Shown here piece after piece: positions 13,462 to 46,110 of a stretch of DNA of 64,000 nt. The notes under the pieces are model-generated. The model saw only the letters and a program-made list of their open reading frames with translations, made no database searches and was not told the origin of the DNA. A program made the translations under genes and the position numbers. The stretch's first letter is position 1; each line of letters starts with the position of its first letter. The DNA is from a virus, in the IMG/VR virus record IMGVR_UViG_3300031754_000003, positions 5,826-69,825 of that record; one strand, given 5' to 3'.

Positions 13462-16158
13462 CTAATAGAACCGGAGCAGCCTGCGGCGAGTGATCCTAGC
13501 GTTTTCCGCAACCGCTTTGCCAAATTTCCACGCGGCTGCCCCAAGTAGAGCAGGACGCCAGCCGATCATGTTCCCAACGCCCACCTTCGGAACGCCTTGA
13601 TTACCGGCAGCTCCATAGGCCCCGACAGGGAATCCAGTATTCGATCCTTTTGGAATGCTGTTCCCGTAGTAGTCATGAAGACCGGGAGTTATGCTGAACG
13701 AGGTAGAAAGGTTGATACCGGCCCCGAACATCGTTGAGCTGGATTGAAGCTTGTATGCAGAAAGAGCGCCAGGGTTGTAGCCGTTGGTCGTGCCGCCGCC
13801 GCCTGGGCTGGTGAGCGCGGGATCGGTCGAGAAACCGCCATTCGCAGTTTCCTGACCGCTATTAGTCTTCCATGTCGAGAACGTAGTGTAATTGGTCGGC
13901 CCCGTCCAATCGGCCGAGAACGTACCACTAGCATAATAATTATTCCCGTCCAGGTGTAATCCTGCCACACTAGGCGTGCCGGTGAAAGCCACCAACTTAT
14001 TGGTACCAGTCGTGTAAAAGATGTTGTTACATATACGCCCACTTACGGTATTTGATCCAGATCCACCTATACCAAGCGCTGGATTTCCGGATGCGTATAC
14101 CGTGTTATTATAGATGGCTAAACCAGTAGTAGTATTGCTATCTGCCCCCACTAGTATTTCCGGGTTCCCACTAGAAGACCTTCCGTTATTCTGACTTATA
14201 CAATACCTAAACGTGATCCCAGAATTAGGAGCATAGCTAGAAAATAATAGAAACCCGTTTCCAGCATTATTATGGCTATAGCAGTACTGCACGACACAGT
14301 TAATAGATGCCTCTACATCGTATCCGTCACCATCGACGGTAAAGGAACCGTTTTTATTAAGATAACTCTCACAAAATTGTATCACTCCTCCGCTAACCGC
14401 CGCCAGGAAGATACCGACTGGACCCGATATAGAAAATCCTGCGTTTGATCCATTATCGTGTGCAATACAATACTCAATAAGACACCCACATGAATTGCCA
14501 TTCGCATCTGTTAATGCAGTGCCAGCAACTTGTTCCGCGAGAATGCCACCACCTGTCCAATCTGAGCTATTCGCTGCATTACCCGTGTTGTTGTACACAG
14601 TGCATCCAGTTATATGGACATTCGTGTTCGCAAATGACCCCGGAAGCCCCTGGATCTTAATCCCGCAGGTTTCATTCAGCGCTGACCCGCCGGTGTTATC
14701 GTGTGATATACAGCCGCTGATAGTGACACTATCAAACCCCGACGTGGTGCTATTCAACCAAATACCATTGCCGCCAAACGCGCTGACGGTAAGATTTATC
14801 AACTGGAAGAAAGACAGCTGAGAGGCAATGCTATTTGTTATAAGTACCCCATCCGTGGTACTAGTCGCTATCCCTGGTCCGGTCACTATCAAGTTCTGCA
14901 GTACCAGACCCTGGACATTTAATGCGGAAATGCCGTGAGAAGAAGTGCTACTAATCGATATGGTAGCACTACCCGTGCCGTAGGAGCCGACCGTGAATGG
15001 ATTGACGTTGGACCATGGAGCCCCGGTTCCGGCATTCGCAGTACCGAGAGCCAGCGCGGTAGTGAAGGTCTGCCCTCCCTGCAAGGATAGGGTATCACTA
15101 CCGTTATACGTCTTGGTGAGCGCGAAGGCGAGCGTCGCCCAAGGCCCATTGGTGCCACTGGTGAATGTCGGTGAAGTCCCATTATTGCTGTCGCTACCAG
15201 CCGAGCTATCTACGTAATAATTAACGCCGCTGACGTGTACTGGCGTGTAGGCAATGCGGATGGCGCCCTGAGCGCCATTACCGCCGGCGCCGCGTGTAGT
15301 CGCTGCGCTTCCAGACCCCGCACCGCCGCCTCCATAAAGCCCACCAGCTCCACCGTCGGACCCAGTGGCGATTCCAGCCGCACCACTACTACCGCCGCCA
15401 CCCCCGGAGCCATGAGATGCATCCCATTCTGTTCCAGCCCCTCCGGCCCCTCCGGCTGAAGCAAGGCTGGTAGAGTCACCAAACCCGCCACCACCGCCGC
15501 TTCCCGCAGATCCTGGCGCGCCGGCAACGCTAGAGCTACTCGATCCCGCTCCGCCGGGGGCGCCGATTTGATTTAGGAACGAGATAGAGGCGCCGCCGTT
15601 AGCCCCAGTGTTTGTCGCGCTAGTGGCACCATTGGCACCACCTCCATTAGCCCCGCCGCCAGCGCCACCGTTCCCGGTGGTCGCACCTCCCGTTCCTCCG
15701 GGACCGCCAGGACCGGCCGCTCCACCACCACCGGGGCCAGAGGCGCCACTACCCGCAGCGCCTGCGCCGCCCGTGTAAAGTGTGTCTCCGGTATGCCCTA
15801 CCCCACCAGCTCCGGGAGTAGCCCCCACGGTGCCTCCGCCGCCGCCAGCCCATACGCTCGCGCCAGCGCCTGTAGTCCCATTGAACCAGCTATCAGTACC
15901 CGCGGTGCCATCAATACCGGTAACCCCAGCAGTGCCGCCAACTCCTGGTGAGCCGATTTGGTAAGTGGCAGTTCCACCCGGAGTAAGGGATAGATTATTT
16001 TTTTTGGCGTACCCGCCTCCCCCGCCAGAAGAGCCGCCGTTACGTCCTCCACCGCCGCCCGCGATAACCTCTATGGAGTTGTTCGAGCTATTCCAATCGA
16101 CAGGAACATTCCAAGTTTGGTTGCTCCCGGTTGGCGAAGTTAAAAATATAACGGTCAT
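13462..16158 (-). CDS. glycine-rich domain + parallel beta-helix fibre/spike protein with C-terminal ITRRRLL tag
   Basis: Start at MTVIFLTS (ATGA overlap); IEVIAGGGGG...GGNGAQGAIRIAY Gly-rich domain; beta-helix paralogous to 11098-13461. Confidence 0.75.
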   Translation of the reverse strand: MTVIFLTSPTGSNQTWNVPVDWNSSNNSIEVIAGGGGGRNGGSSGGGGGYAKKNNLSLTPGGTATYQIGSPGVGGTAGVTGIDGTAGTDSWFNGTTGAGASVWAGGGGGTVGATPGAGGVGHTGDTLYTGGAGAAGSGASGPGGGGAAGPGGPGGTGGATTGNGGAGGGANGGGANGATSATNTGANGGASISFLNQIGAPGGAGSSSSSVAGAPGSAGSGGGGGFGDSTSLASAGGAGGAGTEWDASHGSGGGGGSSGAAGIATGSDGGAGGLYGGGGAGSGSAATTRGAGGNGAQGAIRIAYTPVHVSGVNYYVDSSAGSDSNNGTSPTFTSGTNGPWATLAFALTKTYNGSDTLSLQGGQTFTTALALGTANAGTGAPWSNVNPFTVGSYGTGSATISISSTSSHGISALNVQGLVLQNLIVTGPGIATSTTDGVLITNSIASQLSFFQLINLTVSAFGGNGIWLNSTTSGFDSVTISGCISHDNTGGSALNETCGIKIQGLPGSFANTNVHITGCTVYNNTGNAANSSDWTGGGILAEQVAGTALTDANGNSCGCLIEYCIAHDNGSNAGFSISGPVGIFLAAVSGGVIQFCESYLNKNGSFTVDGDGYDVEASINCVVQYCYSHNNAGNGFLLFSSYAPNSGITFRYCISQNNGRSSSGNPEILVGADSNTTTGLAIYNNTVYASGNPALGIGGSGSNTVSGRICNNIFYTTGTNKLVAFTGTPSVAGLHLDGNNYYASGTFSADWTGPTNYTTFSTWKTNSGQETANGGFSTDPALTSPGGGGTTNGYNPGALSAYKLQSSSTMFGAGINLSTSFSITPGLHDYYGNSIPKGSNTGFPVGAYGAAGNQGVPKVGVGNMIGWRPALLGAAAWKFGKAVAENARITRRRLLRFY

Positions 16159-18029
16159 GGAGAACTCCCCAGCACACAGGTGGGCCGCCAAGCGAACAGA
16201 CCTGACACACCATCACCGGTGTAGGAAGCAACCGGCCCAGTCTCCGCTAATCCTACCGTCATGTCAGCAGATCCGGCGCCAAGATTGGCCACGCTGATTA
16301 TGGCTCGCCACCACCCGCTTCCGATATTGTTGGTGCGCTGGACTAAACCCGTAGCCGTGCCACTGGTGCCAAAGTTAGCCATGGCACCACTCGTGTCTGC
16401 AAAAGCGTAAGCGCCACCAGTCGTTCCACCAATAGATATAAGGAGAAGACGTGTCGCTCCAGTTCCTAGCGCTTTGTAATATACTGCACAGGTGTAGGTT
16501 TGGTTATTTGGTATGGGTACGCTGCCATTATCTATCTCGTGGATGCCGTTTGCCGTGTTCTCTATTAATTTAACAGCGGTCGTCCCACTGTTTGGGTCTG
16601 TCTGCCCTCCTGTTGTGGCACTGTTGGTGGCCGTCCATCCGGTAGCGAAGCTATCGCCACCAGGGACAAGATTGATCGGCGGGCCGCTCGAATACGAGTT
16701 CCCCAATACTACCTGAGTCCCACTCACGGTGTACGGGTAGTATGTCGTAGCACCCGCTGCCGTGTCGGGCGCGGCTGCTCCGGATGATACCGTGTAGCCC
16801 GTACCCCAAGTGATTGTTCCACCGCCGCCCGCGGTGCCCTGCTGAACCTCCATGAAGCCATGCTGCCCGTCGTGCGCATATACCGGATTGGTGATCGTGC
16901 AGGGGACGCATGAAGCCGATAGCACAAAGATATGGTTTGGCGAAAACTGAAAATCTGGCGCATTTGAAGCAACTGTGGCTCCAGGCAGATCGCTGATGGC
17001 TTGTAGGTAATGCGTCTTTTGTGGCCGCTGCCAATCGAGGGACGCCTCTGTCGTCGCATTATCGTAAGCGGCCGTGGCGCTATCTGCCGGAAAACCCTGA
17101 TAATCAAGAATGCAATTACTGCAAGAGATCGAGCCGCCACCGCCGTTTGTGTTATCATATGTAGTGTTATAAAGGACCGAAACGTCTCGGATAATCACAT
17201 TGGACATACTGACGTTGTTGGTATTCCAAACTATGGCCGGACTCAAAGATACTGGGCCAGAGCACCTGGCGCTAAAGATAATCTGGTTACTACCAGACAC
17301 ATGTATACATATAATCTGACTGTTGTTTAAAGCAGTCATTATGTCATCAGTGCCGTCCGCAAAGTAATTAGAGTTATTATCTTCGGCGCGCGTATTGGTG
17401 AACTGGTTGTTGGTGCAACCAATATCACAATCTATTCCTTGAGGTACCGCTGGCGATTCATAATCGGCGATTTGATTGAACCTGCAGTTCACGCCGCAAT
17501 ACACCCCAGGCAAAGATCCCTCTAAGGCAAAGTTTGTTAGATTGATAAATCTGTTGTTCTGTGAACAGCACGACGCAGGATGGATGTTGACTGTCGTGGC
17601 GCAGCCAAAGTTCAGGTCCAGGAATAAGTTGCCGCTCGCCGGGTGGGTCGTCAGATCTAAACAGACGGTAGAGCTACCGCCGAAAATAGAAAACCCCCGC
17701 AAGACATTGCTATTTCCCAGAATAAAGCACGATGCGCCGGAGCAACTAACCGACGTATTCTGCGTGCCGCTAGAGCTGTCCCAGCCCGTTCCCACTTGGC
17801 TGCCAAGGATCGCACACCCCGGGTATGGGCTCAGATCAATTGCAGATCCCCCCGCGGCAAACCCACCAGGTAGAATGAAAATGGCCTTGCCGGTGGCGCA
17901 CGACGGTAGTGCCGCATTCATCGCCGCCATGTCCGTGGTCGAATTGCCTGTCGGCGTGATGTATTGATAAGGATCTGTCGCATAGGCAGCCGGTGCGAGC
18001 AGCAAGAGGCACACACAAAGGAACTTCAC
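16155..18029 (-). CDS. signal-peptide-bearing beta-helix protein with tail-fibre-like and head-spike/CBM-like C-terminal domains
   Basis: GTG start with GGGGA RBS: MKFLCVCLLLLAPAAYA|TDP; Cys-rich; paralog of the next two large genes. Confidence 0.7.
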   Translation of the reverse strand: MKFLCVCLLLLAPAAYATDPYQYITPTGNSTTDMAAMNAALPSCATGKAIFILPGGFAAGGSAIDLSPYPGCAILGSQVGTGWDSSSGTQNTSVSCSGASCFILGNSNVLRGFSIFGGSSTVCLDLTTHPASGNLFLDLNFGCATTVNIHPASCCSQNNRFINLTNFALEGSLPGVYCGVNCRFNQIADYESPAVPQGIDCDIGCTNNQFTNTRAEDNNSNYFADGTDDIMTALNNSQIICIHVSGSNQIIFSARCSGPVSLSPAIVWNTNNVSMSNVIIRDVSVLYNTTYDNTNGGGGSISCSNCILDYQGFPADSATAAYDNATTEASLDWQRPQKTHYLQAISDLPGATVASNAPDFQFSPNHIFVLSASCVPCTITNPVYAHDGQHGFMEVQQGTAGGGGTITWGTGYTVSSGAAAPDTAAGATTYYPYTVSGTQVVLGNSYSSGPPINLVPGGDSFATGWTATNSATTGGQTDPNSGTTAVKLIENTANGIHEIDNGSVPIPNNQTYTCAVYYKALGTGATRLLLISIGGTTGGAYAFADTSGAMANFGTSGTATGLVQRTNNIGSGWWRAIISVANLGAGSADMTVGLAETGPVASYTGDGVSGLFAWRPTCVLGSSP

Positions 18030-18039
18030 AGCCGTTCCC

Positions 18040-19389
18040 CTAATTATGAAATGACGGGCCGAGAACGATCGCATTTAAATCGGTCCTCACCACCCAGGGG
18101 AACCAGGTAGTCTTGTTAGCAGTTGACAGCGGCTGCGCGGTGTTCTGGTAAAAAGTGCCCCATGTAACCGTTCGGCCACCAGTCGAGTCCTGCGTGAACG
18201 CAAAGTATCCTCCCGTTCCATCCGCGAGGATGGTTGGGAATGGTAATGTACAGGGGCATGCAGATGTGAGCGCGAAAGTTTTGTTATAACCATTTTGGAA
18301 ATCTGGTACAGCGAATGCTGATCCAGTTAATGTTATTGGTGCATACCCAACCGGATGCGTATATCTTACATAGTCCATGTCCGCTTCAGCCTGGGTGTTG
18401 TTGTAGAGCGGGTCCGTCCCGTTCCATGTGATATCAAGGTTACAATTCGACGAACACCCACCAGAACCGGTCTCCGCTATGATACCTGATCCGCTCCCGT
18501 TGTAGCCCCCGGAACACACGATACCGACCATTTGCACCAGATTCGTGCTTCCAGGAAAATCTACACAGTATTCGTTGGTTCCCCCATCACCGGCACAACG
18601 TATTCCACCGAAATCATACGCCCCAATTTTGATACAGGTTCCCCCATCAACAGACACGTCAGTGACCGGCCCCCCCGAGCCACCTGACATATCAAGCCCA
18701 ATGGCGCCATGAGGAACACCGGTGACTGTTATTCTATTCCACGCATTAGAAAAGCCGCCGCCGTAAATACCGGCCGTAGTAGGCGAGATAACCGTCAAGT
18801 CCGAAAAGTACGCGTCCGTGGCATTGTCGTGGGTATACATCCCGTATCCATTATTGAGAAACGTTACGTCCACGACCCGCATATTTTGCGCGCAGCAACC
18901 TGATGGATTGCCGTAGTTAATCCCTGCTCCGCAATTGCGGAAGATCATATGAGTTATCACCACGCCGCCAGTTGAACTCTCCTCGTCGGCGCAATTAGTA
19001 TTACTAAGTGGTGTACTTCCATTTCCGATGATCGTAAACCCAGTGATCACAGCGCTGGTGTTTAAGCCAAAACACGGCACAGTATTGGCCAACCCTGAGC
19101 AGTCTACGACTGTGTTCTGCGTTCCAGCTGAGCTTGCCGTGGGACTTCCTGTAACTGGCCCAGATACCGTGCATCCGGCGGGCATATTGATAGTGAGCAC
19201 GATCTTGAATGTGCCCTCTCCTAGAAACACGGTCTTTGGGGAGGCGCAGCTGGCAACGGCAGTGATCAGGTTGATCGTATCAGTGGCCGGCACGCCGGTC
19301 GGCACGATGACATTATAGGGCTCTGTCGCTCTTGCCGGGACGACCGACAGCGCTATCCACATAAGGCTAATTATGAAACGACGGACCAA
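18040..19389 (-). CDS. signal-peptide-bearing Cys-rich beta-helix / tail-fibre-like protein
   Basis: TTG start with GGGAG RBS: MVRRFIISLMWIALSVVPARA|TEP; ends LGPSFHN like its paralog. Confidence 0.7.
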   Translation of the reverse strand: MVRRFIISLMWIALSVVPARATEPYNVIVPTGVPATDTINLITAVASCASPKTVFLGEGTFKIVLTINMPAGCTVSGPVTGSPTASSAGTQNTVVDCSGLANTVPCFGLNTSAVITGFTIIGNGSTPLSNTNCADEESSTGGVVITHMIFRNCGAGINYGNPSGCCAQNMRVVDVTFLNNGYGMYTHDNATDAYFSDLTVISPTTAGIYGGGFSNAWNRITVTGVPHGAIGLDMSGGSGGPVTDVSVDGGTCIKIGAYDFGGIRCAGDGGTNEYCVDFPGSTNLVQMVGIVCSGGYNGSGSGIIAETGSGGCSSNCNLDITWNGTDPLYNNTQAEADMDYVRYTHPVGYAPITLTGSAFAVPDFQNGYNKTFALTSACPCTLPFPTILADGTGGYFAFTQDSTGGRTVTWGTFYQNTAQPLSTANKTTWFPWVVRTDLNAIVLGPSFHN

Positions 19390-20866
19390 GATTGATACTC
19401 CCGTTATTGCCAACTGCGGTCCATGGCCACCAGGTTGTCTTGCCGGATGTGTTAAGCGGCGCCGATGTATTCACATAGATTCCATTCCAAGTGATGGCGC
19501 TGGCTACCGATGGAGTCGGCTGGGTGAACTCAATGTATCCGGTTTGACCATCGTGCACGTAGGGCGGCGCGGGCAATGTGCAGGGGCACGATGACGTACC
19601 CGTCAGGCTGATATTGAAGCCGTTTTTTAGATCGGGGGCAGCGAACGTGCTGCTCGTTAAAGTCACCGCCGCATACCCGATCGGGTGCATGAAGCGCTGC
19701 CAGTCGAAGTCCGTCTCGGCCTGGGTCGATCCGTAAAGGGGATCGGTCTGGTTCCACGATACATCGAAGGTGCAGTTTGTGCATCCTCCGGTAATCCCAG
19801 CCTCATGAAAGACGCTCGAACCCGTGCCGCTATACCCGGCGCTGCACAGCATCGCCGCAACCGAGATGGCGGAGGATGCGGCCGACTCGAAATCGAGGCA
19901 GTAGTTGTTTGCTGAAGCACTCGCGCCGGCGCAGCGCACCGCGCTGACTTGAATATTAGACGCCCCGTTAAACTGTATACATGAGCCCTGGTCAGCTATC
20001 ATGTTATTGATGACGTTGCCGGTGCCGAGCATCTTGATCCCGAAGCCGGTCCCGCCTAGCGTCTGCATCGTCAACATCGCGAAATTTGCTTTAGAGCAAC
20101 CAACGTCGCAGAATATTCCGACCGCTGGCGCAAGCATGGTTACGTTCGTCACCTGGAGGTTGGTGCAGGTGGTATGGCACCAGACCGGCGTTCCGACAGC
20201 CGCGAAGGTCACATCCATCAGCCGGTCGTTGAGCACCGCTCCGCTCGCCGACCCCACGTTGATCCCGTAGCCACAGTTCCGCATCACCATATGGAGCAGA
20301 GTGTTGCCACCGGTGTTCGTTGCCTCGTTGTCCACGCATACCGTATTCGACCCGGCCGTACTGCCGTTGCCGAGGATCGCGAACCCAGTCAACGTATCGC
20401 TGTTGCCAAACTTGAAACAGACAGTGGTCGTGCTAAGCCCAGAGCAGTCAACGACCGTGTTCTGGACTCCATTTGATCCAACGTACGGTGTTCCACTAAT
20501 TGAACCAACGATCGTGCAACCGTCATGCCCAGTCAAATCAATAGTGTTACTGATCGTCCACGTGCCTTCAGAGAGGAATATCGGGTTGGTATTAGTGCAT
20601 GTAGGAAGCGCGGCGGTAATAGTCGCATCAGTTCTTGGTGCCGCGCCGTTAGGAAGCACATTATACGTAGTCCCCCCGCCACCTGCCCCACCGCCGCACG
20701 CGCCCGATGCAAACCCCGTCAATACGCCGCTGGTATAGGTGGCGCATGATGGCCCCGTGGTGCAATTTGAGCCGCTACACGAACTTTCCAGAGTGATTGT
20801 ACCCGTAGTCTGGGCATTAGCCGTCGTGACAAACAACAAACTGAGAATGAGATAAAAGATCAGCAT
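19367..20866 (-). CDS. signal-peptide-bearing Cys-rich beta-helix / tail-fibre-like protein
   Basis: Start re-assigned to MLIFYLILSLLFVTTANA|Q; ends LGPSFHN. Confidence 0.7.
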   Translation of the reverse strand: MLIFYLILSLLFVTTANAQTTGTITLESSCSGSNCTTGPSCATYTSGVLTGFASGACGGGAGGGGTTYNVLPNGAAPRTDATITAALPTCTNTNPIFLSEGTWTISNTIDLTGHDGCTIVGSISGTPYVGSNGVQNTVVDCSGLSTTTVCFKFGNSDTLTGFAILGNGSTAGSNTVCVDNEATNTGGNTLLHMVMRNCGYGINVGSASGAVLNDRLMDVTFAAVGTPVWCHTTCTNLQVTNVTMLAPAVGIFCDVGCSKANFAMLTMQTLGGTGFGIKMLGTGNVINNMIADQGSCIQFNGASNIQVSAVRCAGASASANNYCLDFESAASSAISVAAMLCSAGYSGTGSSVFHEAGITGGCTNCTFDVSWNQTDPLYGSTQAETDFDWQRFMHPIGYAAVTLTSSTFAAPDLKNGFNISLTGTSSCPCTLPAPPYVHDGQTGYIEFTQPTPSVASAITWNGIYVNTSAPLNTSGKTTWWPWTAVGNNGSINLGPSFHN

Positions 20867-21090
20867 GGACCCGGAACGGTGTTGGTTAAGATGCCGTTCG
20901 TGTGAACCAGACACGTTGGCGCTGGGACGCAGTTGGAAGTGTCGCAGGCGCTGACCATCGTGATGTTTATGGTCATTCCAGACGGCGCCATATTTCCCCC
21001 GCCACCATGAGGGATTCTCGCCACGGCAGAGCCGGCAAGGCCTATGGCAATCAGCGAAAGCCAGAGCCAACGAATTAAAATTGTGCCCAT
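20860..21090 (-). CDS. small secreted 4-Cys protein
   Basis: RWLWLSLIAIGLAGSAVA|RIPHGGGG, then a 4-Cys module matching the N-terminus of the downstream gene. Confidence 0.65.
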   Translation of the reverse strand: MGTILIRWLWLSLIAIGLAGSAVARIPHGGGGNMAPSGMTINITMVSACDTSNCVPAPTCLVHTNGILTNTVPGPC

Positions 21091-21665
21091 ACGATGCTAC
21101 CGCTAACCTGGGCAGCGGAGCTAACAAGCAGGCATACATTATCAGCCAGCGTTGCCGTCCGTGCGACAATACCCTGCCCATTGCCAAGTGTTAGCCCGCC
21201 ATTAGATGCTAGATTCCATCCGGTCGCTGCGGTCGCTCCTCCCGCCATGCCAGCGACGCTAGTTGCACAGGCGCTGCCAGTCCCTTCAACAAGAGCAATG
21301 TTATCAGCCGTGCTCGTGATGAGGTTGATGCTGCAAACGTACGTCTGCTTACCAGAAGTCCCCGTGATGATCTGGCCGCTTGCTGTGATGCTAATCGGTG
21401 TCGAGGTCGTGTTCCCGACCGTGGCTCCGGCACACCCGGCCGTGATCGTAATCTGTCCCGACCCATTTATCCCCAGCGCGTTAACTCCGGCCGCATCGAG
21501 GATTTGATACTGAGGGATGAAGGCTCCGGAACTGCCACCAAAGCAAATCGTTTGTGTGGTGCCTCCGGCATCTTTAAGGGTCAAAGAAGTGCCGGGGCAT
21601 GCAGCTACCGCCGCACTGCTGGCAAGAATCCAGATCAGTATCGCAAGAGAGAGAGAGCGTTTCAT
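21075..21665 (-). CDS. secreted beta-sandwich protein, paralog of 45262-46110
   Basis: MKRSLSLAILIWILASSAAVA|A; GKQTYVCS...LVEGTGSAC...NGG...GNG...CLL motif. Confidence 0.72.
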   Translation of the reverse strand: MKRSLSLAILIWILASSAAVAACPGTSLTLKDAGGTTQTICFGGSSGAFIPQYQILDAAGVNALGINGSGQITITAGCAGATVGNTTSTPISITASGQIITGTSGKQTYVCSINLITSTADNIALVEGTGSACATSVAGMAGGATAATGWNLASNGGLTLGNGQGIVARTATLADNVCLLVSSAAQVSGSIVWAQF

Positions 21666-21826
21666 CGGACCACCGCCGTTATGCTGTTGCATATGTTTGT
21701 CCAATCAAAGACCAGGTTTGTAGAGCACGACCCGCCGCCGCCGCTCGTGGGTGCCATTGTAAGATTGGCATGCCCCAAGGCAATGCCGCTGAGGATCGCA
21801 GCAACTATGAGAAGCAAGCGTATCAT
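21662..21826 (-). CDS. 54-aa secreted 2-Cys peptide
   Basis: MIRLLLIVAAILSGIALGHA|NLTMAPTSGGGGSCSTNLVFDWTNICNSITAVVR; ATGA overlap downstream; not in the ORF track. Confidence 0.68.
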   Translation of the reverse strand: MIRLLLIVAAILSGIALGHANLTMAPTSGGGGSCSTNLVFDWTNICNSITAVVR

Positions 21827-21827
21827 A

Positions 21828-22772
21828 TTACTGCCATACCTGGATTGATTTGATCACAGTCGTCTGACCGCTACCGCTTGATACGTTGATACAGTTGTGC
21901 TGCGTGAGCGCTTGATTGATCTGATCGCCGGTCGTGAAGTTGACCGTGTTCGGTGTTGTGGGATTGAGTGTTTCGGGTGTCGAGGTATTCGCAGCAAAGT
22001 AGCCAGCGAAGAAGCCGGTCCCGCCATTTTGCGCCGGGGAGACGAGTAGCGTCCCATAGACTTGACCAGCGTGGTTGCCGCCGCCGCCTTGATCGCGTTG
22101 ATACGCATGATTGACCTGAGCTGGGGTATTCCAATTCGGGCTAGGTAACCAAGAGACGATGTCAGCTACCCACGAGCCATCTGCCAGTAGCGATTCAAAG
22201 GTATCTATCTCCGTCATGCTGGCCACCCCTGGTGCCGCAGCAGAATAGTATTCGGTCGGTAACATCCATGGGAACACCGGCCACCAACCAGTCCCCCCGG
22301 ATCTACCTGATGGAGCCGATCCTATCACGGTCTTGATATAGAAAGGCCCGGTGATGGTCGTGCCTATCCACTGCCCCGCGGTGCCGTTTGTGATGCAACT
22401 CGTGAGGTCGATGCCTGGGTTGCTGGTGTCGCTGCCGGTCGTTAAGATCTGGATGCCACCGCCGGCCGCGGCTGTGTACCAGCTTCCTGGCGTTGGAGGG
22501 TCTGTCTGTCCAGCGGTGTTTCCCGAGTAGAGTCCAGGCCATCCGATCCTCCTATAGAGCAAATACCCAGGATTGCCCGTATTGCTGACGTCTACTTGGC
22601 TGATATTATTGAGACAGTAAACCTCGTGTGTGTAGCCCCACGTTACGGCCGGTGCCGGGATCGAGTCGGTACAAGCCAAGGACGGCGCCCCTCCCCCGCT
22701 GAAAACCGTCTTCTCTTGCGCGATGGACGCAATCAGGAGCAAGCAAAGCGCGAGACCGAGTACCCTTAGCAT
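21828..22772 (-). CDS. secreted GH16/ConA-like (laminin-G) fold protein, possible glycanase
   Basis: MLRVLGLALCLLLIASIA signal; WWPVFPWML...EIDTFE resembles the GH16 WPAFW...EIDxxE catalytic motif. Confidence 0.55.
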   Translation of the reverse strand: MLRVLGLALCLLLIASIAQEKTVFSGGGAPSLACTDSIPAPAVTWGYTHEVYCLNNISQVDVSNTGNPGYLLYRRIGWPGLYSGNTAGQTDPPTPGSWYTAAAGGGIQILTTGSDTSNPGIDLTSCITNGTAGQWIGTTITGPFYIKTVIGSAPSGRSGGTGWWPVFPWMLPTEYYSAAAPGVASMTEIDTFESLLADGSWVADIVSWLPSPNWNTPAQVNHAYQRDQGGGGNHAGQVYGTLLVSPAQNGGTGFFAGYFAANTSTPETLNPTTPNTVNFTTGDQINQALTQHNCINVSSGSGQTTVIKSIQVWQ

Positions 22773-23737: not shown

Positions 23738-23743
23738 TAGGGG

Positions 23744-37200: not shown

Positions 37201-37271
37201 TCAACCCTACCCCAGAGGGACGGAGAAATTTCTCCCCAACTAAACGCCGGATCGATGAGAGGGACGCTCAC
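34221..37271 (-). CDS. tail tubular protein B / nozzle
   Basis: FSWGEISPSLWGRVDL...NCYVNFRGGAYSRAGTAFV, PSVVNYFQQRRIFA, EQEVAAWAKHTT. Confidence 0.85.
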   Translation of the reverse strand: MSVPLIDPAFSWGEISPSLWGRVDLAKWHSAAATLRNCYVNFRGGAYSRAGTAFVGMSRQTPLEGDPPPRLVNFNFSLLQNYCLEFGNFYGRIITNGAYVTEAPVTITAISQSNPAQITAANDFAAGDWVALAGIGGMTLLNGNTYIVGPSPTATHFTITDLDGISVDSTAFTAYTGGGTAARIYTFATPFAASAGLHMTDLQYLKWAQSADVMTFCCVNQITGTEYVPQNLSRSGTTNWSFAPLAIGTTAPTPFGLYGNATVGPNSSLSPPTLPCAYAYNVTSIDPTTGEESNTGVPLNITDGVDIAETAGSNVINWASLGSVQFKIYRAPPSYNTGNSSNALPVPIGSLFGLIGESLGTQFVDSNITADFSISPPQHRNPFAHGQILSLIITSSSNDWTVANAVINTSTGSGAVIQPIINTSNQIVAGFISNPGGNYSPGDTISFFGDGTSATGILKIGPQTGTNPSVVNYFQQRRIFADSLNEPDTMWGSQPGAFNNFDVSIPVGDADALTITPWSEQVNGVQWMLEMPGGLVTFTGSSIQTVQASGASALNPQPLTPTSAQALPQSSYGSSSTLRPERINWNMLAWEPDNSTLRKYSYQIWFNLYTGNDTIWQSSHLTQNHQIVDTAWCRKPNYLYWAVRDDGVLLSMTFLEEQEVAAWAKHTTQGAVRALCSTTELPIDALYLCVERPVARGGTRYFIERMDNRLWESSEDPWCVDCGVATVLPEPNATLFASTSGGSVIFTATAAVFNPGDIGSTLRFGGGIAAITGYVSSQALSGVWVYPCQQIIPDDPNGTPMWQMAGNWTLAPQLTSVGPLPFDFEGKQVVGLADGIPIGPLTINQNLVVHLPFPASNVKLGLGFTAQVQSVYLDAGQPTIQGRRKAVNAVTVRVETSGPMQAGANQVDASAQAPPPTFATWTNLASIPKSQLAPTYPSPGTFMNPTPMMVQPLFTGDMRVVIPSAWQKPGQVAAQQTLPQPLQVLAFVPELLEGDLPEATIQPRQRQDQPPQARRA

Positions 37272-37274: not shown

Positions 37275-38207
37275 CTAATAGACGCCGCCGCCTTGGCCGC
37301 CATAGCCAAAAGCTCCGTCCTCCCAGCCTAGCGCGAAATAACCGGCTCCCGAGCCATATCCCCCGCCCCAGCCGCCGTACCCATAGGCAGTGCGAGCCCT
37401 TAGCCAACTAGCCTCGTAGCTGGCAGTCTGCAGGAACCCGACTTCGTTGGCTGACGCCATCCGCGCCTTGCCGATAGCTAGTTCCGCCAGCGCTGTGCGT
37501 TGAGCAACGATGCCGGCGCGTTCCTTAGGGTCTGGGATTACGGTTGGAGCAAAGCGTATAGCAAGGACATCAACCATCGCTTGCGAGAAAAGCTCGTCCC
37601 AAGTCTCAATCTCCAATGCAAGCCGGGTATAGACCAGCCACGCATCGAAAACGTCCGTCAGGATAATTCTCCTGGTATTCGGGCCAACTCCTTCGATGTC
37701 ATCGAGATCGGGGATCTGATCCCATTGCTGCACTCCGATCTCTGTAGGGAATTGATCCGTTGATGACGACAGGAACCGCGCGGGCGTCTCCTCATGCCAA
37801 TGAGACGATGAGATGTTATCCGCGAACGGTGGAACCGGCGATTGGGTCAACGGAGGCGGAATAGTTAAATTCCCTGGAGGAAATCCTGGCGCGCTTTGCC
37901 GGTTCCAAGGCACCCAGCGTGGCCTCACACAATCGATGGGCCAAGCATAGGAAAACCGCCAAGGAGGTTCGACTAGCCCCGCACCAGGGAAGTCAGGAAC
38001 TTGATTGAGACGATCCCCGAGCAATTGCATCTTGCTGCGCTTGCGGGCGAACGACCAATGAGACATCCGAAGGAGTTGCCGCAACGTCTCCCCGTACCAA
38101 CGCCGGGCGAGTTCGCTCTCCGTGGTCCCATCTTCGAATGAACCGATGATCTTTCCTTGGCCGAGTTCATCCAACGCACGGTTCACCACGTCCGAAGGGA
38201 GCCTCAT
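37275..38207 (-). CDS. tail tubular protein A / adaptor paralog 3
   Basis: SDVVNRALDELG...IGSFEDG...WSFARKR...WRFSYAWPIDC. Confidence 0.75.
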   Translation of the reverse strand: MRLPSDVVNRALDELGQGKIIGSFEDGTTESELARRWYGETLRQLLRMSHWSFARKRSKMQLLGDRLNQVPDFPGAGLVEPPWRFSYAWPIDCVRPRWVPWNRQSAPGFPPGNLTIPPPLTQSPVPPFADNISSSHWHEETPARFLSSSTDQFPTEIGVQQWDQIPDLDDIEGVGPNTRRIILTDVFDAWLVYTRLALEIETWDELFSQAMVDVLAIRFAPTVIPDPKERAGIVAQRTALAELAIGKARMASANEVGFLQTASYEASWLRARTAYGYGGWGGGYGSGAGYFALGWEDGAFGYGGQGGGVY

Positions 38208-38909
38208 CTATCCCCTCCGCTTGTCTGCCATCGCAGCATCAACAGCGCTCTCTTGCGCCGCTGACTTCATCAAGTCGAGATTTTGCGAGAGCGGTACAGC
38301 GAGCTTTTCTTTGAGTGACGTGATCAAAACCCGCAAAAATGAGACATTCCATTGGGATGGATCAATAACCTGTGCGAGGTAGATCGCGATTGCATTGCGC
38401 ACATTCGCTAGGATCACCTTCGTCCCGGAGGCCAACGGGCCGCCCGAGCCACCGATCAATATGTTGTCTGCGCCCGTGAGTATCTGGCCACCGCCCGTCA
38501 GGATCTCACCACCGCCACCTAATGTGAAATCATTATCGATCCGCCATAGGGCTGGCTTCGGATCACGGTTCGGCAGCAGGAAAGGTTGCGGCACGATCGC
38601 ACGCAATTCTAATGCGTCCGATGGATAGCCGTACTCATAGAGCCAACCTGGCGGAGGATAGGTGGAGTTCCATGGAGTCTGCGGATTGTATCCACCTGGC
38701 GGCGGTGGACCTTTGAGAAGCGTCAGCGCAATTGAGCGCCTAGCGAAATCCCAATCCATCGAGCGGAGGAGTTCATCCCTGGTCTCGCCGTAGACTTCGA
38801 GGAAAGCCTTTGAAGCCTCGGAGCCGTCGTATGCTGAACCAATCCGGCGACGAACCCCCAACTCGCGGAGCACTTGGTTCCAGATATCTTCGACGCTCGG
38901 GACGGGCAT
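38208..38909 (-). CDS. tail tubular protein A / adaptor paralog 2
   Basis: EDIWNQVLRELG...IGSAYDG...WDFARRS...WLYEYGYPSDA. Confidence 0.75.
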   Translation of the reverse strand: MPVPSVEDIWNQVLRELGVRRRIGSAYDGSEASKAFLEVYGETRDELLRSMDWDFARRSIALTLLKGPPPPGGYNPQTPWNSTYPPPGWLYEYGYPSDALELRAIVPQPFLLPNRDPKPALWRIDNDFTLGGGGEILTGGGQILTGADNILIGGSGGPLASGTKVILANVRNAIAIYLAQVIDPSQWNVSFLRVLITSLKEKLAVPLSQNLDLMKSAAQESAVDAAMADKRRG

Positions 38910-39484
38910 TACACACTCCGCGCCACGCTTTCGTCACTCAGTTCCGCTAGCTGTTCATAGCGAGCCGCAGTCTCTAGCAACTCCTTAGCATAGTCCGGAC
39001 GCCCGGCAAGCGCCATGGCTAGCGGGTTGGCGAGCTGACGCACGACCGATTGTTCAAACACCGCGTCCCATTCATTCTCCGTTACCAACGATGTCGTGTA
39101 GACAAGCTCGGCGTTCGCCTGATTGGTCGCGATCAATTTCCCAGGATTCGCGAAGTAGACGAGACCGCGGATCGGGTAAGGATCGAAGATATTATACCGA
39201 CCGGATGGCGCTATCTGCCTCGCCCAGACGCAATCTCCGGGATAAACGTAAGCGTAGATCCACGGAGGCGGCACGGACGCGGGGGATACAGTAAGCGCTA
39301 CCGTAAAGCGCGCGAAATCTGGATTATTCTGGCGCAGCAACAACTGCACGGTCGGAGTGTAGAGAACAGTCGCTGCATTCGCCGCAGGCGGGAACGCCGA
39401 TGTTCCGTCGCCAAACGCCTCGATCTGGGTCTGGGAACCTATGAACTCCAGCGCTTGGTTAAACACGTCAATGGATGAGGTCAT
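38909..39484 (-). CDS. tail tubular protein A / adaptor paralog 1
   Basis: IDVFNQALEFIG...IEAFGDG...PDFARF...WIYAYVYPGDC. Confidence 0.75.
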   Translation of the reverse strand: MTSSIDVFNQALEFIGSQTQIEAFGDGTSAFPPAANAATVLYTPTVQLLLRQNNPDFARFTVALTVSPASVPPPWIYAYVYPGDCVWARQIAPSGRYNIFDPYPIRGLVYFANPGKLIATNQANAELVYTTSLVTENEWDAVFEQSVVRQLANPLAMALAGRPDYAKELLETAARYEQLAELSDESVARSV

Positions 39485-41662
39485 CTAACGGCATGACCAA
39501 AGCGTGCTCAATCCCTGACATTCGATAAACTGGCTAAGACCAAAAGAGGTCGGGACCGCAGCGATATTCCCGCCGGTGACAAAGGCAGCACCACCGCCAT
39601 TGACAAATCGCAGAACACGTCCCGGCCATATACTACCGATAGTCGAGACCGGCGTAGCGCCGGATAGAGTGACCAATGGTGAAAATCCAGGATCGATAGA
39701 GGCCGCTGCCGTCAAAGGCAATGACCTAGTGTCAATGTTGAAATTATTGACAAATATCGCTATCGCAGCGGGGCTCGCCCCCTGTATCGTCGTGTTTGGA
39801 TAATCGACAAAATGATTCCCCTGCACATTCAACTCTACATCCTTCGAATTATTCACAAAGTCTGTCAACACTGTGCTGACGGCGGTATCACAAGTGCCGC
39901 CTATCGTATTATTGAGGATGTCATGCCGGCCCATCCCGCCAGATTCTATCTCATATGCGGCGTATACACCCGGCGATTCAAAGCTGGCCCCGCAATCGAA
40001 GCCATTTATATATCTAACGTCGACTACATTTGCCCCGACATCTACGCCGATTGCTCCAGATAATTCCATCCGGTGTCCGTCGAATGCAATGTGTCCCACA
40101 TTGCCGCTGCCGGCCGTATTGAGTAGTTCCACTCCAACAGCCGGATTGAACACCGATACGCCGGGAGTACGACCATATCTGCCGCCGATCTGCCCAATCG
40201 AGCCTGTCCAGGTGTGGTCAAAAACAAGCTGCCCAATTTGGGCGCTAGAGGAAGTGGGGTTTATATAAATCCCATAGAAGTTGACGGTATCAAACGCGGC
40301 ATGCGTTATCCAGCCGCCGTCCACGACTTGGCCGGCCCCTGGATCGACCATGAACCCGACGTCCATATATAGCGCTTCCACGTTATCGCCGATGTAAGCG
40401 CCCCCCTCGTTTAGCAATTCGAAACCGGCTGTTCCGATATTCACGGTGCCGTTGGAAGACGGTCCTGCAGCAGCCTGAGCACCGATAGCTATATTAGAGA
40501 GCATTGCATCGATAGAAACGGCCCCAGGGCCAATTCTCACCAATCGGCAATTCGGTTGCAGCGCAGGGTTGGTGATACGCCAGTCTCGATAAGTATTCGT
40601 ATTTCCGTTCTCGTCCAATGCGTGGCACGCGTTGAGAATCACAAGGCGAGTGAGAACGGTTTGCTCGGCATTGTCGACGATCGCTGTCCCAGATGTCGCA
40701 TTGCTGCCGCTCGTTCCTGGCGAGACCGAGAAATTATCAAATTTACTCCCATTTGCTCCCGTATTTATGGTCAGCATCGTAGGATTAGCCGAACAGGCCA
40801 CGAAACCGCCATCGGCTGGGCCATTATCTGAGCCGCTCGCCGAGCCTTGCACAGTTATCGGGAAATTAAAAGTCAATGCGGTTATACAATATTCGTGCGA
40901 TCCAAGGATAACTTTGCCAGGATTGGAATTTAGCATTGCCGTAAAGGCCGCGTTATCATTGGTCACGCCATCGCCGACCGCTCCCCATACTCCCGGAAAG
41001 ACGCCTTCCGGGGGGATATGCAATAACCAACAACCCCCGCCCGATGCCTTTACTTGGGAGCCGTTATCACCATTGCCGCCGTTCAACGAACATGTGCCAG
41101 AAGAGTAATTATAGATCGCGGCCCCGCTATCGCCTGGAATCGTGAAGCCCTCACGATAGACGACCGAGGCTCCTGCCGTGCTCTCCAAAAGGAGAGCGGC
41201 GTTATTTGGAACCGCAGGTAGCCCCGTAACCGTAGCCCCAACGCATTGCGATACGATTCCGTTGATATCGCATTGTAATGGGAGTGGCGCCGCGCCCCCG
41301 AAAGCGTTGTAAGACAACAAACCGCCGCCCAAAGCGTTAGCATCGAAACTCAGCGCATGATAGCCATTTGTGCTATTTATCGGTGCGTCAAGTAAGCTTA
41401 CGTGTGTGCCGAATGGGCCGCTCCCAGGATCATGATTGACCTGTAGCAATTCGCTAAGCCCGGCTCCGGTCTGCGTTCCTGAAGCGCTAAGTCCGCTCGC
41501 AAACCCGCTATCCACGACGGCAGCGAAGCCCTGCCCTGGGCCAAGCTGGTACATCGGCACATGACCGCCGATCGCTGGTCCGGCTTGCAGCACGCTCTGC
41601 GCCCATGCCGGGGTATGGAGCAAAACTCCGACCAGTAGAGCCAAGGGCAATCTGATCTTCAT
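39485..41662 (-). CDS. tailspike-like pectate-lyase-3 beta-helix protein with signal peptide
   Basis: Start re-assigned to MKIRLPLALLVGVLLHTPAWA|Q; GFTIPGDSGAAIY...DNG...W and WGAVGDGVTNDNAAF tailspike motifs. Confidence 0.75.
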   Translation of the reverse strand: MKIRLPLALLVGVLLHTPAWAQSVLQAGPAIGGHVPMYQLGPGQGFAAVVDSGFASGLSASGTQTGAGLSELLQVNHDPGSGPFGTHVSLLDAPINSTNGYHALSFDANALGGGLLSYNAFGGAAPLPLQCDINGIVSQCVGATVTGLPAVPNNAALLLESTAGASVVYREGFTIPGDSGAAIYNYSSGTCSLNGGNGDNGSQVKASGGGCWLLHIPPEGVFPGVWGAVGDGVTNDNAAFTAMLNSNPGKVILGSHEYCITALTFNFPITVQGSASGSDNGPADGGFVACSANPTMLTINTGANGSKFDNFSVSPGTSGSNATSGTAIVDNAEQTVLTRLVILNACHALDENGNTNTYRDWRITNPALQPNCRLVRIGPGAVSIDAMLSNIAIGAQAAAGPSSNGTVNIGTAGFELLNEGGAYIGDNVEALYMDVGFMVDPGAGQVVDGGWITHAAFDTVNFYGIYINPTSSSAQIGQLVFDHTWTGSIGQIGGRYGRTPGVSVFNPAVGVELLNTAGSGNVGHIAFDGHRMELSGAIGVDVGANVVDVRYINGFDCGASFESPGVYAAYEIESGGMGRHDILNNTIGGTCDTAVSTVLTDFVNNSKDVELNVQGNHFVDYPNTTIQGASPAAIAIFVNNFNIDTRSLPLTAAASIDPGFSPLVTLSGATPVSTIGSIWPGRVLRFVNGGGAAFVTGGNIAAVPTSFGLSQFIECQGLSTLWSCR

Positions 41663-44235: not shown

Positions 44236-44724
44236 TCACTGGAGTCGATACCATGTGCTTGTCAGCGAGATGTAGCGCCAGCAATAGGAGGTCCCCGCCA
44301 CCGTGGCTGCGACCGCCGTCCCAACGAGCGACTGCCCGGTGTTGGCCGATACGGTCAAGGTGGTCACGACTCCACTATCAAGGAGACAGAATTCCTGCCC
44401 ACTCCCCGGATTGGCAGGCATCGTGACCGTGCCCGTCGCAAGCGGCGTGGTCGCAGGGTTCAGGAAAAGCAGCGATGTAGTGTTGAGCGGAGTGATCGAG
44501 AACCCGGTCACCGGGACCGCGTCCTGCTCGTTCAGCATAGCGCCAATCTGTCCTGGATTCACAAACGGCTGCGCTGCTGACGGCGCCCCACCTGGTACGA
44601 TCGGCACGAGATCGGTCTGGGTCACCTTTCCGGGATTGGATGCCGGCGGGTTGAGTTGGGCAAAAGCCGGGCCGGCGAGCATCAGTGCGAATGCTCCCAT
44701 AGCGGCTATTTTACGGAATTGCAT
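44236..44724 (-). CDS. signal-peptide-bearing fibre/decoration-like protein
   Basis: MQFRKIAAMGAFALMLAGPAFA|Q; LATGTVTMPANPGSGQ...WRY...TWYR phage fibre-like module. Confidence 0.7.
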   Translation of the reverse strand: MQFRKIAAMGAFALMLAGPAFAQLNPPASNPGKVTQTDLVPIVPGGAPSAAQPFVNPGQIGAMLNEQDAVPVTGFSITPLNTTSLLFLNPATTPLATGTVTMPANPGSGQEFCLLDSGVVTTLTVSANTGQSLVGTAVAATVAGTSYCWRYISLTSTWYRLQ

Positions 44725-44744
44725 AGTAGGACTCCAAAGAAGGT

Positions 44745-45251
44745 TCAGTTAGGGTTCGACGGGCCTCCGTAAAGCGGCTTGCAATAAATCCGAACATCTA
44801 CTGTAGCCCCGCTTTGGCTGGTTCCGACGTTGAAATACACTTGGCTGAGGTTGAATGCCTCGGTGGTCGCCGCGACGGTTGGCGAATAGGCACTGCCGGC
44901 AGCGTTGAGTGCGGCGGCCGTCAACGTCGAGAGCACACCGTTGGCAACAACCGTAACACCCGTGGCACCTGCGGCGGTGAAAATCCCGGCCGCAGCCGAG
45001 CTGAGGGAGACGTTGGCGTTCGCGTAGATGACCTTGTCGATATAGTAGCTGCCACCGCCATTCAGGACGCTTGGTGCCGAGATCGGAATGATCTTATCGC
45101 CCGTGGCCGCGAGGCTCACCCCAAAAGCTTGGCCACATTGTACGCTACCCGGCGCATAGGCTTGCCAAGGTGTCGTCTGGAATTGAAATTGGGTTTGCGC
45201 CTCGGCCGCTATGGGGAGCAAGAGGGCAAACAAGAAAATGCGGTGTTTCAC
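44745..45251 (-). CDS. signal-peptide-bearing beta-sandwich protein
   Basis: MKHRIFLFALLLPIAAEA|Q; all-beta mature part ending TVDVRIYC. Confidence 0.68.
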   Translation of the reverse strand: MKHRIFLFALLLPIAAEAQTQFQFQTTPWQAYAPGSVQCGQAFGVSLAATGDKIIPISAPSVLNGGGSYYIDKVIYANANVSLSSAAAGIFTAAGATGVTVVANGVLSTLTAAALNAAGSAYSPTVAATTEAFNLSQVYFNVGTSQSGATVDVRIYCKPLYGGPSNPN

Positions 45252-45261
45252 CTGAAGCCTT

Positions 45262-46110
45262 TCATTGCTGCACGTAGGTCAAATTCCCCGCCAGCGCCGC
45301 GGTGCCAGATTGAAGAAGACAGATACCATTTGCCGCCGTCGCCGTCACGCCGACAGTCCCGGCTCCGTTCCCGTAAGCCATACCCCCGTTCGCCGCATAA
45401 CTCTCGCCGCTCGCCGCTGTGGTTGAGCCCCAGACGGCTGCCTCATTCGCTGTCGTACACGCCGCTCCGGTTCCTTCGATCAAGCTAACTACCGCCGCCG
45501 TGGCCGCGAGCACATGATAAGAGCAGACATAGACTTTCTTGCTTGCGCTTCCGGCGACGAGTTGCGTATTCCCCGAACTGGTCGCGATCGCCACGTTAGT
45601 CTTAGCCGCACTCGTACATGGATCACTCGTCGTGACCGCAACCGTACCGCCCGTCTGTTGCATCGGCGAGCCGAGCGTGGTGTTGATCGTCGTTAGCGCA
45701 GTGTTTCCGGTCGTCTGCAGTGTGCTCGTAGCGGCTAATGCCGGGAGCGGAAGTGAGGTAGCCGAAATCGGAAAGACCGCCCCCGTGCCAGGCTGGACAT
45801 ACCAGGAATCGGCCGCAGCGTCGGTGCCTTTAGCCCCCTGAGCTACGGTACCGACCGTGATCGTTCCGCTGAAAGTCGCGCCGGTGCAGAGGTTGCCATT
45901 CACGTCTTCCGTAAGCGGCGCTTGGGTTAGGGCCGTGTATGGCCATTGCCCAGATGAATATGGGGCAGTCCCGCATGACGTGACGACGATGGCAGTCGAA
46001 AAAGGCGTAGTTATTGTTTGCGCCGATTGTACCGAAATGCTCGCAACAATGCCGGCAGTGACAACCGCCGCCGCTATAGCCGGGATTGCGCGAGAGAACC
46101 TCAATATCAA
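45262..46110 (-). CDS. signal-peptide-bearing protein, C-terminal domain paralogous to 21075-21665
   Basis: Hydrophobic N-terminus ending VQSA|Q; KKVYVCS...LIEGTGAAC...NGG...GNG...CLL. Confidence 0.7.
   Translation of the reverse strand: MILRFSRAIPAIAAAVVTAGIVASISVQSAQTITTPFSTAIVVTSCGTAPYSSGQWPYTALTQAPLTEDVNGNLCTGATFSGTITVGTVAQGAKGTDAAADSWYVQPGTGAVFPISATSLPLPALAATSTLQTTGNTALTTINTTLGSPMQQTGGTVAVTTSDPCTSAAKTNVAIATSSGNTQLVAGSASKKVYVCSYHVLAATAAVVSLIEGTGAACTTANEAAVWGSTTAASGESYAANGGMAYGNGAGTVGVTATAANGICLLQSGTAALAGNLTYVQQ

Follow-up and report, generated by a model that had tools for sequence, protein, structure and literature searches.

Tailed-phage assembly is, in textbook accounts, wholly cytoplasmic, and phage fibres are assumed to lack export signals. 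Here we describe a 64-kb stretch of phage DNA (hereafter the window; positions 5,826 to 69,825 of the IMG/VR record IMGVR_UViG_3300031754_000003, a single virus record of 69,825 bp) in which 14 genes for fibre-, spike- and decoration-like proteins begin with Sec-type leaders. These genes belong to one long late (virion) operon that runs on the minus strand from 54288 down to 11098. It is well supported, as far as sequence can tell, that the 14 proteins are precursors of an exported, disulfide-bonded kind. We further propose, with a probability of about 0.45, that the leader-bearing spike and fibres dock on the phage particles after the holin has opened the inner membrane.

Leaders and cysteines of the fourteen proteins

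The initial annotation had placed signal-like leaders on ten consecutive genes at 16155-26264, on the tailspike-like gene 39485-41662 and on three capsid-proximal genes (44236-46110). Inspection agrees for 14 of 14: each has a Sec-type N-terminus with n-, h- and c-regions, that is, a short and often basic n-region, an uncharged hydrophobic h-region of 7–15 residues and small residues at -3 and -1, most often AxA with Q, T, D or N next. Of the ten consecutive genes, eight are large open reading frames (ORFs) and two are small ones that fill gaps, and the genes abut or overlap each other and the flanking virion genes. The leader-bearing genes are, with lengths in amino acids (aa) and Cys counts of the mature parts:

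25455-26264, minus strand: fibre-repeat protein, 269 aa, 8 Cys; phrog_38058 (tail fiber), 4.5e-6
23744-25450, minus strand: tail-fibre homologue, 568 aa, 10 Cys; fibre motif with FWRGDGTW
22766-23737, minus strand: protein without assigned fold, 323 aa, 8 Cys
21828-22772, minus strand: leader-bearing protein, 314 aa, 4 Cys; weak homologue in contig L035
21662-21826, minus strand: small leader-bearing ORF, 54 aa, 2 Cys
21075-21665, minus strand: protein whose leader has a lipobox-like VAAC, 196 aa, 6 Cys
20860-21090, minus strand: small leader-bearing ORF, 76 aa, 4 Cys
19367-20866, minus strand: beta-helix paralogue with a Cys-rich N-terminal insert, 499 aa, 22 Cys
18040-19389, minus strand: right-handed beta-helix protein, 449 aa, 16 Cys
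16155-18029, minus strand: beta-helix paralogue, 624 aa from GTG 18029, 20 Cys
39485-41662, minus strand: key spike-like gene, 725 aa, 12 Cys; N-domain of ~130 aa and variable beta-helix
45262-46110, minus strand: small leader-bearing gene, 282 aa, 6 Cys
44745-45251, minus strand: small leader-bearing gene, 168 aa, 2 Cys
44236-44724, minus strand: small leader-bearing gene, 162 aa, 2 Cys

Two leaders, those of 19367-20866 and of the gene starting with TTG at 26264, have neither K nor R. The starts of the 18040 and 16155 genes were set slightly apart from the longest ORF, at TTG 19389 and at GTG 18029 (favoured over 18074), and GGAG-like Shine-Dalgarno sites precede several of the leader-giving starts. 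Of the 70 genes of at least 100 aa called across the whole 69.8 kb, a strict home-made heuristic for hydrophobicity and AxA flagged 16, and it flagged none of 73 out-of-frame shadow ORFs; it misses some leaders that are clear by eye, such as those of 19367-20866 (no K/R) and 44236-44724. It is very improbable that the hydrophobic N-termini are no working signal peptides but mis-called starts, uncleaved anchors or membrane-active segments used in infection. Some starts are indeed uncertain (TTG 26264; the two candidates for 16155-18074), and a public gene caller started the 18040 gene inside the leader (P0009). However, an in-frame n-h-c pattern with AxA/Q (the slash standing for the cut) is preserved across diverged orthologues despite drift of the h-region, the shadow ORFs do not score, and the parity of Cys counts and the link between leaders and Cys described below would be hard to explain without export.

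As to what the proteins are, Pfam, PHROG and NCBIfam gave no match for most of the 14. The fibre motifs reported in the initial annotation are present: GTVTSI...GLSGGTIT with FWRGDGTW in 23744-25450, GAVGDGVTND in the beta-helix of 39485-41662, and in 25455-26264, the first gene after the internal virion proteins, a repeat motif (two copies of TGVTxGxYTCPTxTVNAxG). The 23744-25450 protein has more than 590 matches in IMG/VR, and both it (45% identity, contig L005) and 22766-23737 (33% over the full length, L005/G005) have leader-bearing homologues there. The 16155, 18040 and 19367 genes are mutual paralogues, and the orthologue of 19367-20866 (P0014) retains the leader. An AlphaFold2 model of 18040-19389 (pLDDT 71) is a right-handed beta-helix followed by a C-terminal beta domain, to which the nearest Foldseek matches, all at low TM-scores, are GH55 glucanases, the RbmB polysaccharide lyase, AlgE4 and phage tailspikes; 16155-18029 ends in a GTA head-spike-fibre domain (NF048003, 1.2e-10, 42 bits against a cut-off of 36). 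The fibre and beta-helix character of the set is thus drawn from the phrog tail-fibre match, a Bcep781 tail fibre, the beta-helix fold and NF048003. A collection of cultured phages gave only distant tail-gene matches, the Bcep781/Bcep43 fibre and four metagenomic records with the fibre motif. Two further relationships lie within the set: the C-terminal ~120 aa of 21075-21665 are 41% identical to 45262-46110, the shared domain resembling only viral clusters, and the mature N-terminus of the 54-aa ORF 21662-21826 (NLTMAPTSGGGGSCS) mirrors that of the 323-aa protein 22766-23737 (NLTLAPTSPGGGAPTGSCS), so that the small ORF looks like a truncated duplicate related to the larger one.

A survey of related genomes, which the initial annotation had suggested, found the signal peptides conserved. 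Homologues of 18040-19389 outside the window (42–69% identical) kept the leader in five of five cases, with an n-h-AxA pattern on a drifting sequence. The family of 39485-41662 gave 937 matches at E <= 0.001, each standing for a protein cluster at 50% identity; among the 149 best non-self cluster representatives, 127 were flagged as leader-bearing, and most of the others are truncated or show a leader once a later start is chosen. By eye, five of the first seven homologues of this gene have a leader. Leaders are also present on orthologues in contigs L001 and L002.

The Cys content of the proteins points the same way. All 14 leader-bearing proteins have an even mature Cys count, compared with 17 of the 43 signal-less proteins that this genome encodes (Fisher p = 3.4e-5); within the 39485 family, the count is even for 109 of the 133 representatives that bear a leader (p = 2e-14). 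If 21075-21665 is a lipoprotein, its +1 Cys would be lipidated and five would be left. The enrichment and conserved spacing of Cys noted in the initial annotation are real: per 100 aa there are 2.5 Cys in the flagged proteins but 0.40 in 16 core virion proteins of this genome, and an alignment of eight homologues of 18040-19389 contains 12 invariant Cys columns. The two features also covary between phages. Among 82 ORFs with the fibre motif in 80 other IMG/VR loci, the median was 1.47 Cys per 100 aa in the 16 that were leader-flagged and 0.32 in the 66 others (~4.6-fold; Mann-Whitney p = 2e-7), and two of the three Cys-rich 'unflagged' homologues proved leader-bearing by eye. At loci with a leader-bearing fibre 26 of 251 genes nearby had leaders, versus 41 of 1004 at other loci. 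Taken together, leader conservation, Cys parity and leader-Cys covariation argue for export and oxidative folding in the periplasm, as had been proposed, insofar as sequence comparisons can.

The 39485-41662 gene and its relatives

The 39485-41662 protein combines a conserved N-domain (consensus AxA/Q..VLQ.GP.TPGH.PMY..., with two near-invariant Cys; QSVLQAGPxxGGHxPMY... in another form) with a C-terminal part of variable sequence, for total lengths of about 170–1100 aa in the family, and its gene lies directly upstream of the tail-adaptor genes. The other parts of the virion module are:

46107-54288, minus strand: head module with large terminase, portal, protease, major capsid protein, decoration-like protein and 271-aa protein
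38909-39484, 38208-38909 and 37275-38207, minus strand: three tandem tail-adaptor paralogues, each phrog_394
34221-37271, minus strand: tail nozzle, 1016 aa, phrog_376
26350-34224, minus strand: three T7-like internal virion (ejection) proteins of 967, 450 and 873 aa, with 0–1 Cys each

IMG/VR scans with N-domain alignments returned 14 and 79 loci, two sets that overlap and are not de-replicated; an alignment of 34 N-domain proteins was too diverse, and a narrower one was used. In the first set, at least ten contigs and L002 share one gene order: capsid, decoration protein, 271-aa protein, small leader genes, small conserved genes, N-domain gene, three adaptors, nozzle and ejection proteins. 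In the second, the N-domain was located in 66 loci, 56 of them with room downstream; an adaptor homologue follows within 6 kb in 52 of these 56, and within 50 nt in 27. Leaders were flagged automatically in 43 of the 66 located loci, and re-inspection of 20 unflagged or unlocated loci revealed a classic leader directly before LQxGP...GHxPxY in 15, the other five having no match to the motif. The 39485-type gene is thus a core gene of this phage family, fixed beside the adaptor genes, and it follows the pattern of receptor-binding proteins, since it lies in the virion module and its product pairs a conserved N-terminus with a distal part that varies.

Whole genomes extend this picture. The relative G001 (84,249 bp; 100% complete by CheckV, the source of all completeness figures for relatives) has a capsid protein 69% identical to ours, and its virion module encodes four large proteins outside the core set, each with a leader: 519, 425 (by eye), 675 (the 39485 type) and 629 aa. 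The last is encoded behind the ejection proteins, at the fibre position, and has at its end a Peptidase_S74 intramolecular chaperone (4.8e-5), which was found in this relative only; apart from these four, the large ORFs of G001 comprise replication genes and one unassigned 504-aa protein. Ten further relatives of 60–68 kb are 97–100% complete, two with terminal repeats and two classed as proviruses, and five of these were read whole in addition to G001. Leader-bearing candidates in these five are of 454, 444 (by eye) and 546 aa in G006; 338, 475, 668, 781 and 295 aa in G008; 539 and 253 aa in G009; 163 and 767 aa in G012; and 429 (by eye), 658, 223, 117 and 945 aa in G014. Signal-less non-core proteins of at least 200 aa are limited to one of 240 aa (G008), one of 293 aa (G009) and a distant one of 606 aa (G012), and a fibre gene after the ejection proteins is missing in four of the five. 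The distant complete phage G005 (46.8 kb) has a run of six leader genes, a Tat-like 932-aa protein and one signal-less fibre-like protein of 304 aa.

Some further features of these genomes are recorded here. A 411-aa early-strand protein of the window (9328-10563, plus strand) is 33% identical to part of the Tat-like protein of G005 (24982-27780). In G014 (47% GC), two N-domain genes (658 and 945 aa) precede the adaptors; the family range of 47–64% GC suggests hosts from different groups. The two relatives that IMG/VR classes as proviruses are G011 and G012, and the family may include temperate phages residing in sequenced bacterial genomes. After the nozzle, G006, G008, G009, G012 and G014 encode giant ejection proteins (1603–4548 aa, 0–2 Cys), where the present phage has three separate proteins.

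The N-domain itself was modelled as a beta-rich fold (pLDDT 78) with no Foldseek match in PDB or BFVD (E <= 0.001), and no sequence match was found in PDB; the only lead was a weak one from the Atlas, to Mtd_N at 0.81. Scans of 185,579 species genomes with patterns of a few peptides found no relative of the N-domain or of the capsid protein, and the N-domain family was found only in viral contigs, together with the tail genes of this phage family. A prediction of the complex between the adaptor 38909-39484 and the N-domain (residues 22-150) scored 0.00 and carries no weight either way.

The initial annotation stated that no system of this scale had been described. For tailed phages this stands, since a full-text literature search (supplements being outside its scope) did not turn up any account of virion modules whose fibres or spikes have leaders; among bacteria, however, a system of the same architecture exists. 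All 21 mosaic adhesive trimeric (MAT) proteins of Bdellovibrio bacteriovorus are described as having a signal peptide, a conserved beta-rich N-domain of ~130 aa without PDB homologue, presumed to bind a cell-surface element, and a variable trimeric fibre, and 13 of the 21 have S74 (PMC10769870). Compared by architecture only, the 39485 type resembles them in its signal peptide, its ~130-aa beta-rich N-domain and its variable fibre-like part, and the likeness extends to some S74 chaperones and to many paralogues per genome. Display at the cell surface during infection or lysogeny, as for MAT fibres, is accordingly a reading to be weighed: the N-domain would bind a cell-surface element and the variable tips would serve adhesion, host capture or the blocking of rival phages. 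It would account for an architecture equal to that of all 21 MAT proteins, for an N-domain of that size and fold without PDB or BFVD match, for the S74 of G001 and for the two provirus-classed relatives. We nevertheless hold it improbable. The MAT genes are chromosomal, in a predatory bacterium, whereas the genes described here lie in a phage virion operon beside the adaptors, with no promoters or terminators of their own above shuffled sequence (11 promoter-like sites against 11.9 in shuffles, 7 terminator-like sites against 14.8). The N-domain was found only with this family's tail genes and, by the pattern scan, in none of the 185,579 species genomes, and surface display would need a route across the outer membrane. 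The passages on the MAT proteins mention no Cys pairing (PMC10769870), unlike the even-Cys pattern found here.

Assembly, lysis and the possible place of the leader-bearing proteins

The particle itself appears ordinary. The virion module has the T7/Carin-1-like order of portal, capsid, adaptor, nozzle and internal ejection proteins, and one of the latter (26350-34224) includes a transglycosylase-like segment. The adaptor is related to the Carin-1 connector (2e-5) and the nozzle to the Carin-1 nozzle (1e-63); 8CK1 is the Carin-1 structure (PMC13730344). The window thus comes from a podovirus-like phage with a genome of 69.8 kb, and a membrane-containing virion was rejected, the list of virion parts being that of an ordinary podovirus. 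The genome is complete or near-complete, because it ends in a direct repeat of ~156 bp (genome positions 1-156 and 69670-69825, the copies differing at one base) and because the endolysin gene runs over the genome ends, spanning this repeat. No tRNA genes were found, and a scan of viral contigs with the 873-aa internal protein gave no match. The adaptor trio, which is conserved in relatives, is unusual for podoviruses and could supply several docking rings. The nozzle is enlarged, with 1016 aa here and 1061–1337 aa in relatives against 830 aa for the Carin-1 chain, and it has an inserted segment that matches phrog_584; in several of G001, G006, G008 and G009 it reaches 1326–1337 aa.

The remaining genes that bear on assembly and lysis are:

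13462-16158 and 11098-13461, minus strand: two large signal-less proteins of the beta-helix type, directly downstream of the leader genes
59245-62612, plus strand: second cluster: six small genes with leaders, adjoining the lysis genes
63132-63431, plus strand: i-spanin-like gene (DUF2570 match of 17.6 bits, below the Pfam cut-off of 26.6)
63428-63676, plus strand: lipoprotein o-spanin-like gene overlapping the former
63727-64000 and beyond, plus strand: soluble GH25 endolysin, starting at 63727 and running across the genome ends
L085:464-661, outside the window: holin-like protein, 65 aa, two transmembrane segments

The host is a diderm bacterium, as follows from the i-spanin-like gene, the overlapping o-spanin-like lipoprotein gene, the soluble endolysin and the 65-aa holin-like protein. 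In canonical holin-endolysin lysis, a soluble endolysin needs large holin lesions; through them cytoplasm and periplasm become continuous ahead of spanin action, leaving a short interval in which docking could take place. In the route that we propose, fibre-, spike- and decoration-like proteins would be made as Sec precursors and sent to the periplasm, where signal peptidase would cut them (mostly at AxA/Q, one or two at a lipoprotein-type site) and disulfides would lock the mature proteins. At least the 39485-type spike would form a receptor-binding and depolymerase set together with 23744-25450 and 25455-26264. DNA-filled particles with adaptor and nozzle would be assembled in the cytoplasm without spikes or fibres. 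Particles and periplasmic spikes would meet once large holin lesions have formed in the inner membrane but while the outer membrane has yet to be broken by the spanins, and the conserved N-domain would then dock on the tail with its three adaptor paralogues; the docking and what follows it we infer. Addition of spikes to finished particles has a parallel in vitro, where free tailspikes complete P22 heads and free fibres complete T4, both partners being cytoplasmic in vivo.

T7 gp17 and P22 gp9 lack signal peptides, and their folding and assembly take place in the cytoplasm, as is normal for phage fibres; all 14 proteins depart from this through their leaders. Auto-cleaved C-terminal chaperones are found in some podovirus spikes and fibres. 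Dpo31 of Carin-1 is described as signal-less, with an N-terminal beta-sandwich anchor that starts at residue 8 (PMC13317679). It resembles the leader-bearing proteins in being encoded in the virion module and in joining an N-terminal domain to a variable beta-helix or fibre, but lacks their leaders and even Cys counts, and the N-domain of 39485-41662 matches no known anchor. According to a survey of phage targets of diversity-generating retroelements, these targets have no signal peptides, an absence that the survey takes as a mark of phage origin (PMC6199706).

Against this background, the principal alternative is that the proteins are exported and disulfide-bonded but never become part of the virion, acting as stable soluble depolymerases or adhesins. 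They might work in the periplasm on the envelope polymers of the infected cell, with receptor destruction, superinfection exclusion or the freeing of progeny from debris as possible ends, or be released at lysis to strip the capsule or matrix of neighbouring cells. All the evidence for export and disulfides fits this equally well, and it requires no new assembly route. Exported bacterial enzymes with a tailspike fold exist, such as the Tat-exported glycanase WceF of Pantoea (PMC7949094). WceF and Vibrio RbmB (PDB 9OZL, a Foldseek match) share with the present proteins a signal peptide and a right-handed beta-helix acting on exopolysaccharide, and the beta-helix modelled here is nearest to the secreted RbmB, GH55 and AlgE4 folds; WceF and RbmB, however, are single host genes in polysaccharide or biofilm loci, whereas here at least 14 phage genes lie in a virion operon, and their families were seen in viral contigs only.

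The phage also exports many other small proteins. The second cluster continues past the end of the window with at least three more leader genes (L085:995-3405); it includes lipoboxes (59245-59577 and L085:995-1633), a Tat-like TRRRL leader (61081-62202), a Cys-rich protein with 8 mature Cys (L085:2037-2546) and a DUF4082 protein (L085:2563-3405; 7e-38). Nearby, L085:3929-4609 encodes a CAP domain preceded by a hydrophobic segment that lies internally. Exported accessory proteins are familiar in phages, examples being Lom and Bor of lambda, Llp of T5, spanins and SAR endolysins. These likewise use the host Sec or lipoprotein pathway, and some are encoded among tail genes; they are, in contrast, small, unlike core structural-type genes and not related to fibres, and none of them is homologous to a fibre or spike with a conserved domain resembling an anchor. 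A signal-peptide endolysin has also been described (PMC8951688).

A soluble role would moreover leave the virion with candidate spikes in this phage, because the claim in the initial annotation that no signal-less fibre gene is present was wrong: 11098-13461 (Pfam Beta_helix, 1.3e-9) and 13462-16158 both lack a leader. The two proteins are 38% identical over the C-terminal ~600 aa, and 13462-16158 and 11098-13461 have 12 and 17 Cys, respectively. Neither has a homologue in the six complete relatives examined. The homologues of 13462-16158, dominated by its Gly-rich N-terminal domain (GGGGG runs), gave no clue to virion attachment; many carry this domain at the N-termini of large proteins, several have PF21722, and some are labelled in their source as candidate-phyla-radiation (Paceibacterota).

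We consider the soluble role rather unlikely, and favour docking of the leader-bearing spike and fibres, because the 39485-type gene belongs to the core and keeps its place next to the adaptors, because a conserved N-domain with swapped C-termini is the build of an anchored receptor-binding protein, and because the relatives have little else with which to bind a host: were the leader-bearing proteins soluble, the six complete relatives would be left almost without a recognisable receptor-binding protein. The FWRGDGTW repeats and the S74 chaperone also sit on leader-bearing proteins. Finally, a decoy or a copy meant to destroy receptors should have its distal domain in common with a signal-less paralogue, and none of the leader-bearing proteins does; with no such pair, a decoy copy of a virion spike was rejected.

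Several points weigh against docking. We know of no precedent for a periplasm-matured virion protein in a tailed phage, and with the compartments joined only for seconds around lysis, assembly would be late and possibly inefficient. The two signal-less proteins at 11098-16158 could serve as the virion spikes of this phage, and host binding might fall to the enlarged nozzle. No similarity of the N-domain to known tail- or head-binding anchors was detected in PDB and BFVD, and the three small leader genes of 44236-46110, placed between capsid and tail genes, are patchy among relatives. At least ten additional small exported proteins without fibre likeness indicate that export is a general habit of this phage and no proof of a virion role. 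Lastly, the leader calls are crude (heuristic and eye), and the gene calls are greedy longest ORFs in DNA of 47–64% GC.

Significance for phage morphogenesis and virome annotation

The presence of leaders is confirmed for this genome and extends to a phage family, and docking is plausible. One complete phage and at least 90 related viral contigs (not de-replicated) carry leaders on fibre and spike homologues, with the Cys statistics expected of periplasmic proteins, which suggests periplasm-matured fibres and spikes of a kind not described for tailed phages. Tentatively, and with slightly less assurance than for docking itself, these data point to a widespread, as yet uncultured family of 60–85-kb phages with two-compartment assembly, in which periplasm-matured receptor-binding proteins would be added between the opening of the holin lesions and the rupture of the outer membrane, and whose combination of leader, ~130-aa N-domain and exchangeable trimeric tip might be the source of the MAT fibres with which predatory bacteria recognise prey.

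If the virion role is true, phage morphogenesis would have a second compartment and would depend on host Sec, signal peptidase and Dsb, adding new host factors, routes to resistance and a constraint on host range, and it would be explained how phages obtain disulfide-hardened spikes. If the proteins are not on the virion, many 'tail fibre' annotations in viromes would denote exported enzymes or adhesins, and the prediction of receptor-binding proteins and host range from metagenomes would change. The provirus-classed relatives suggest that a cultured lysogen may exist, and under either reading the combination of a leader with an even Cys count provides a simple marker for such proteins.

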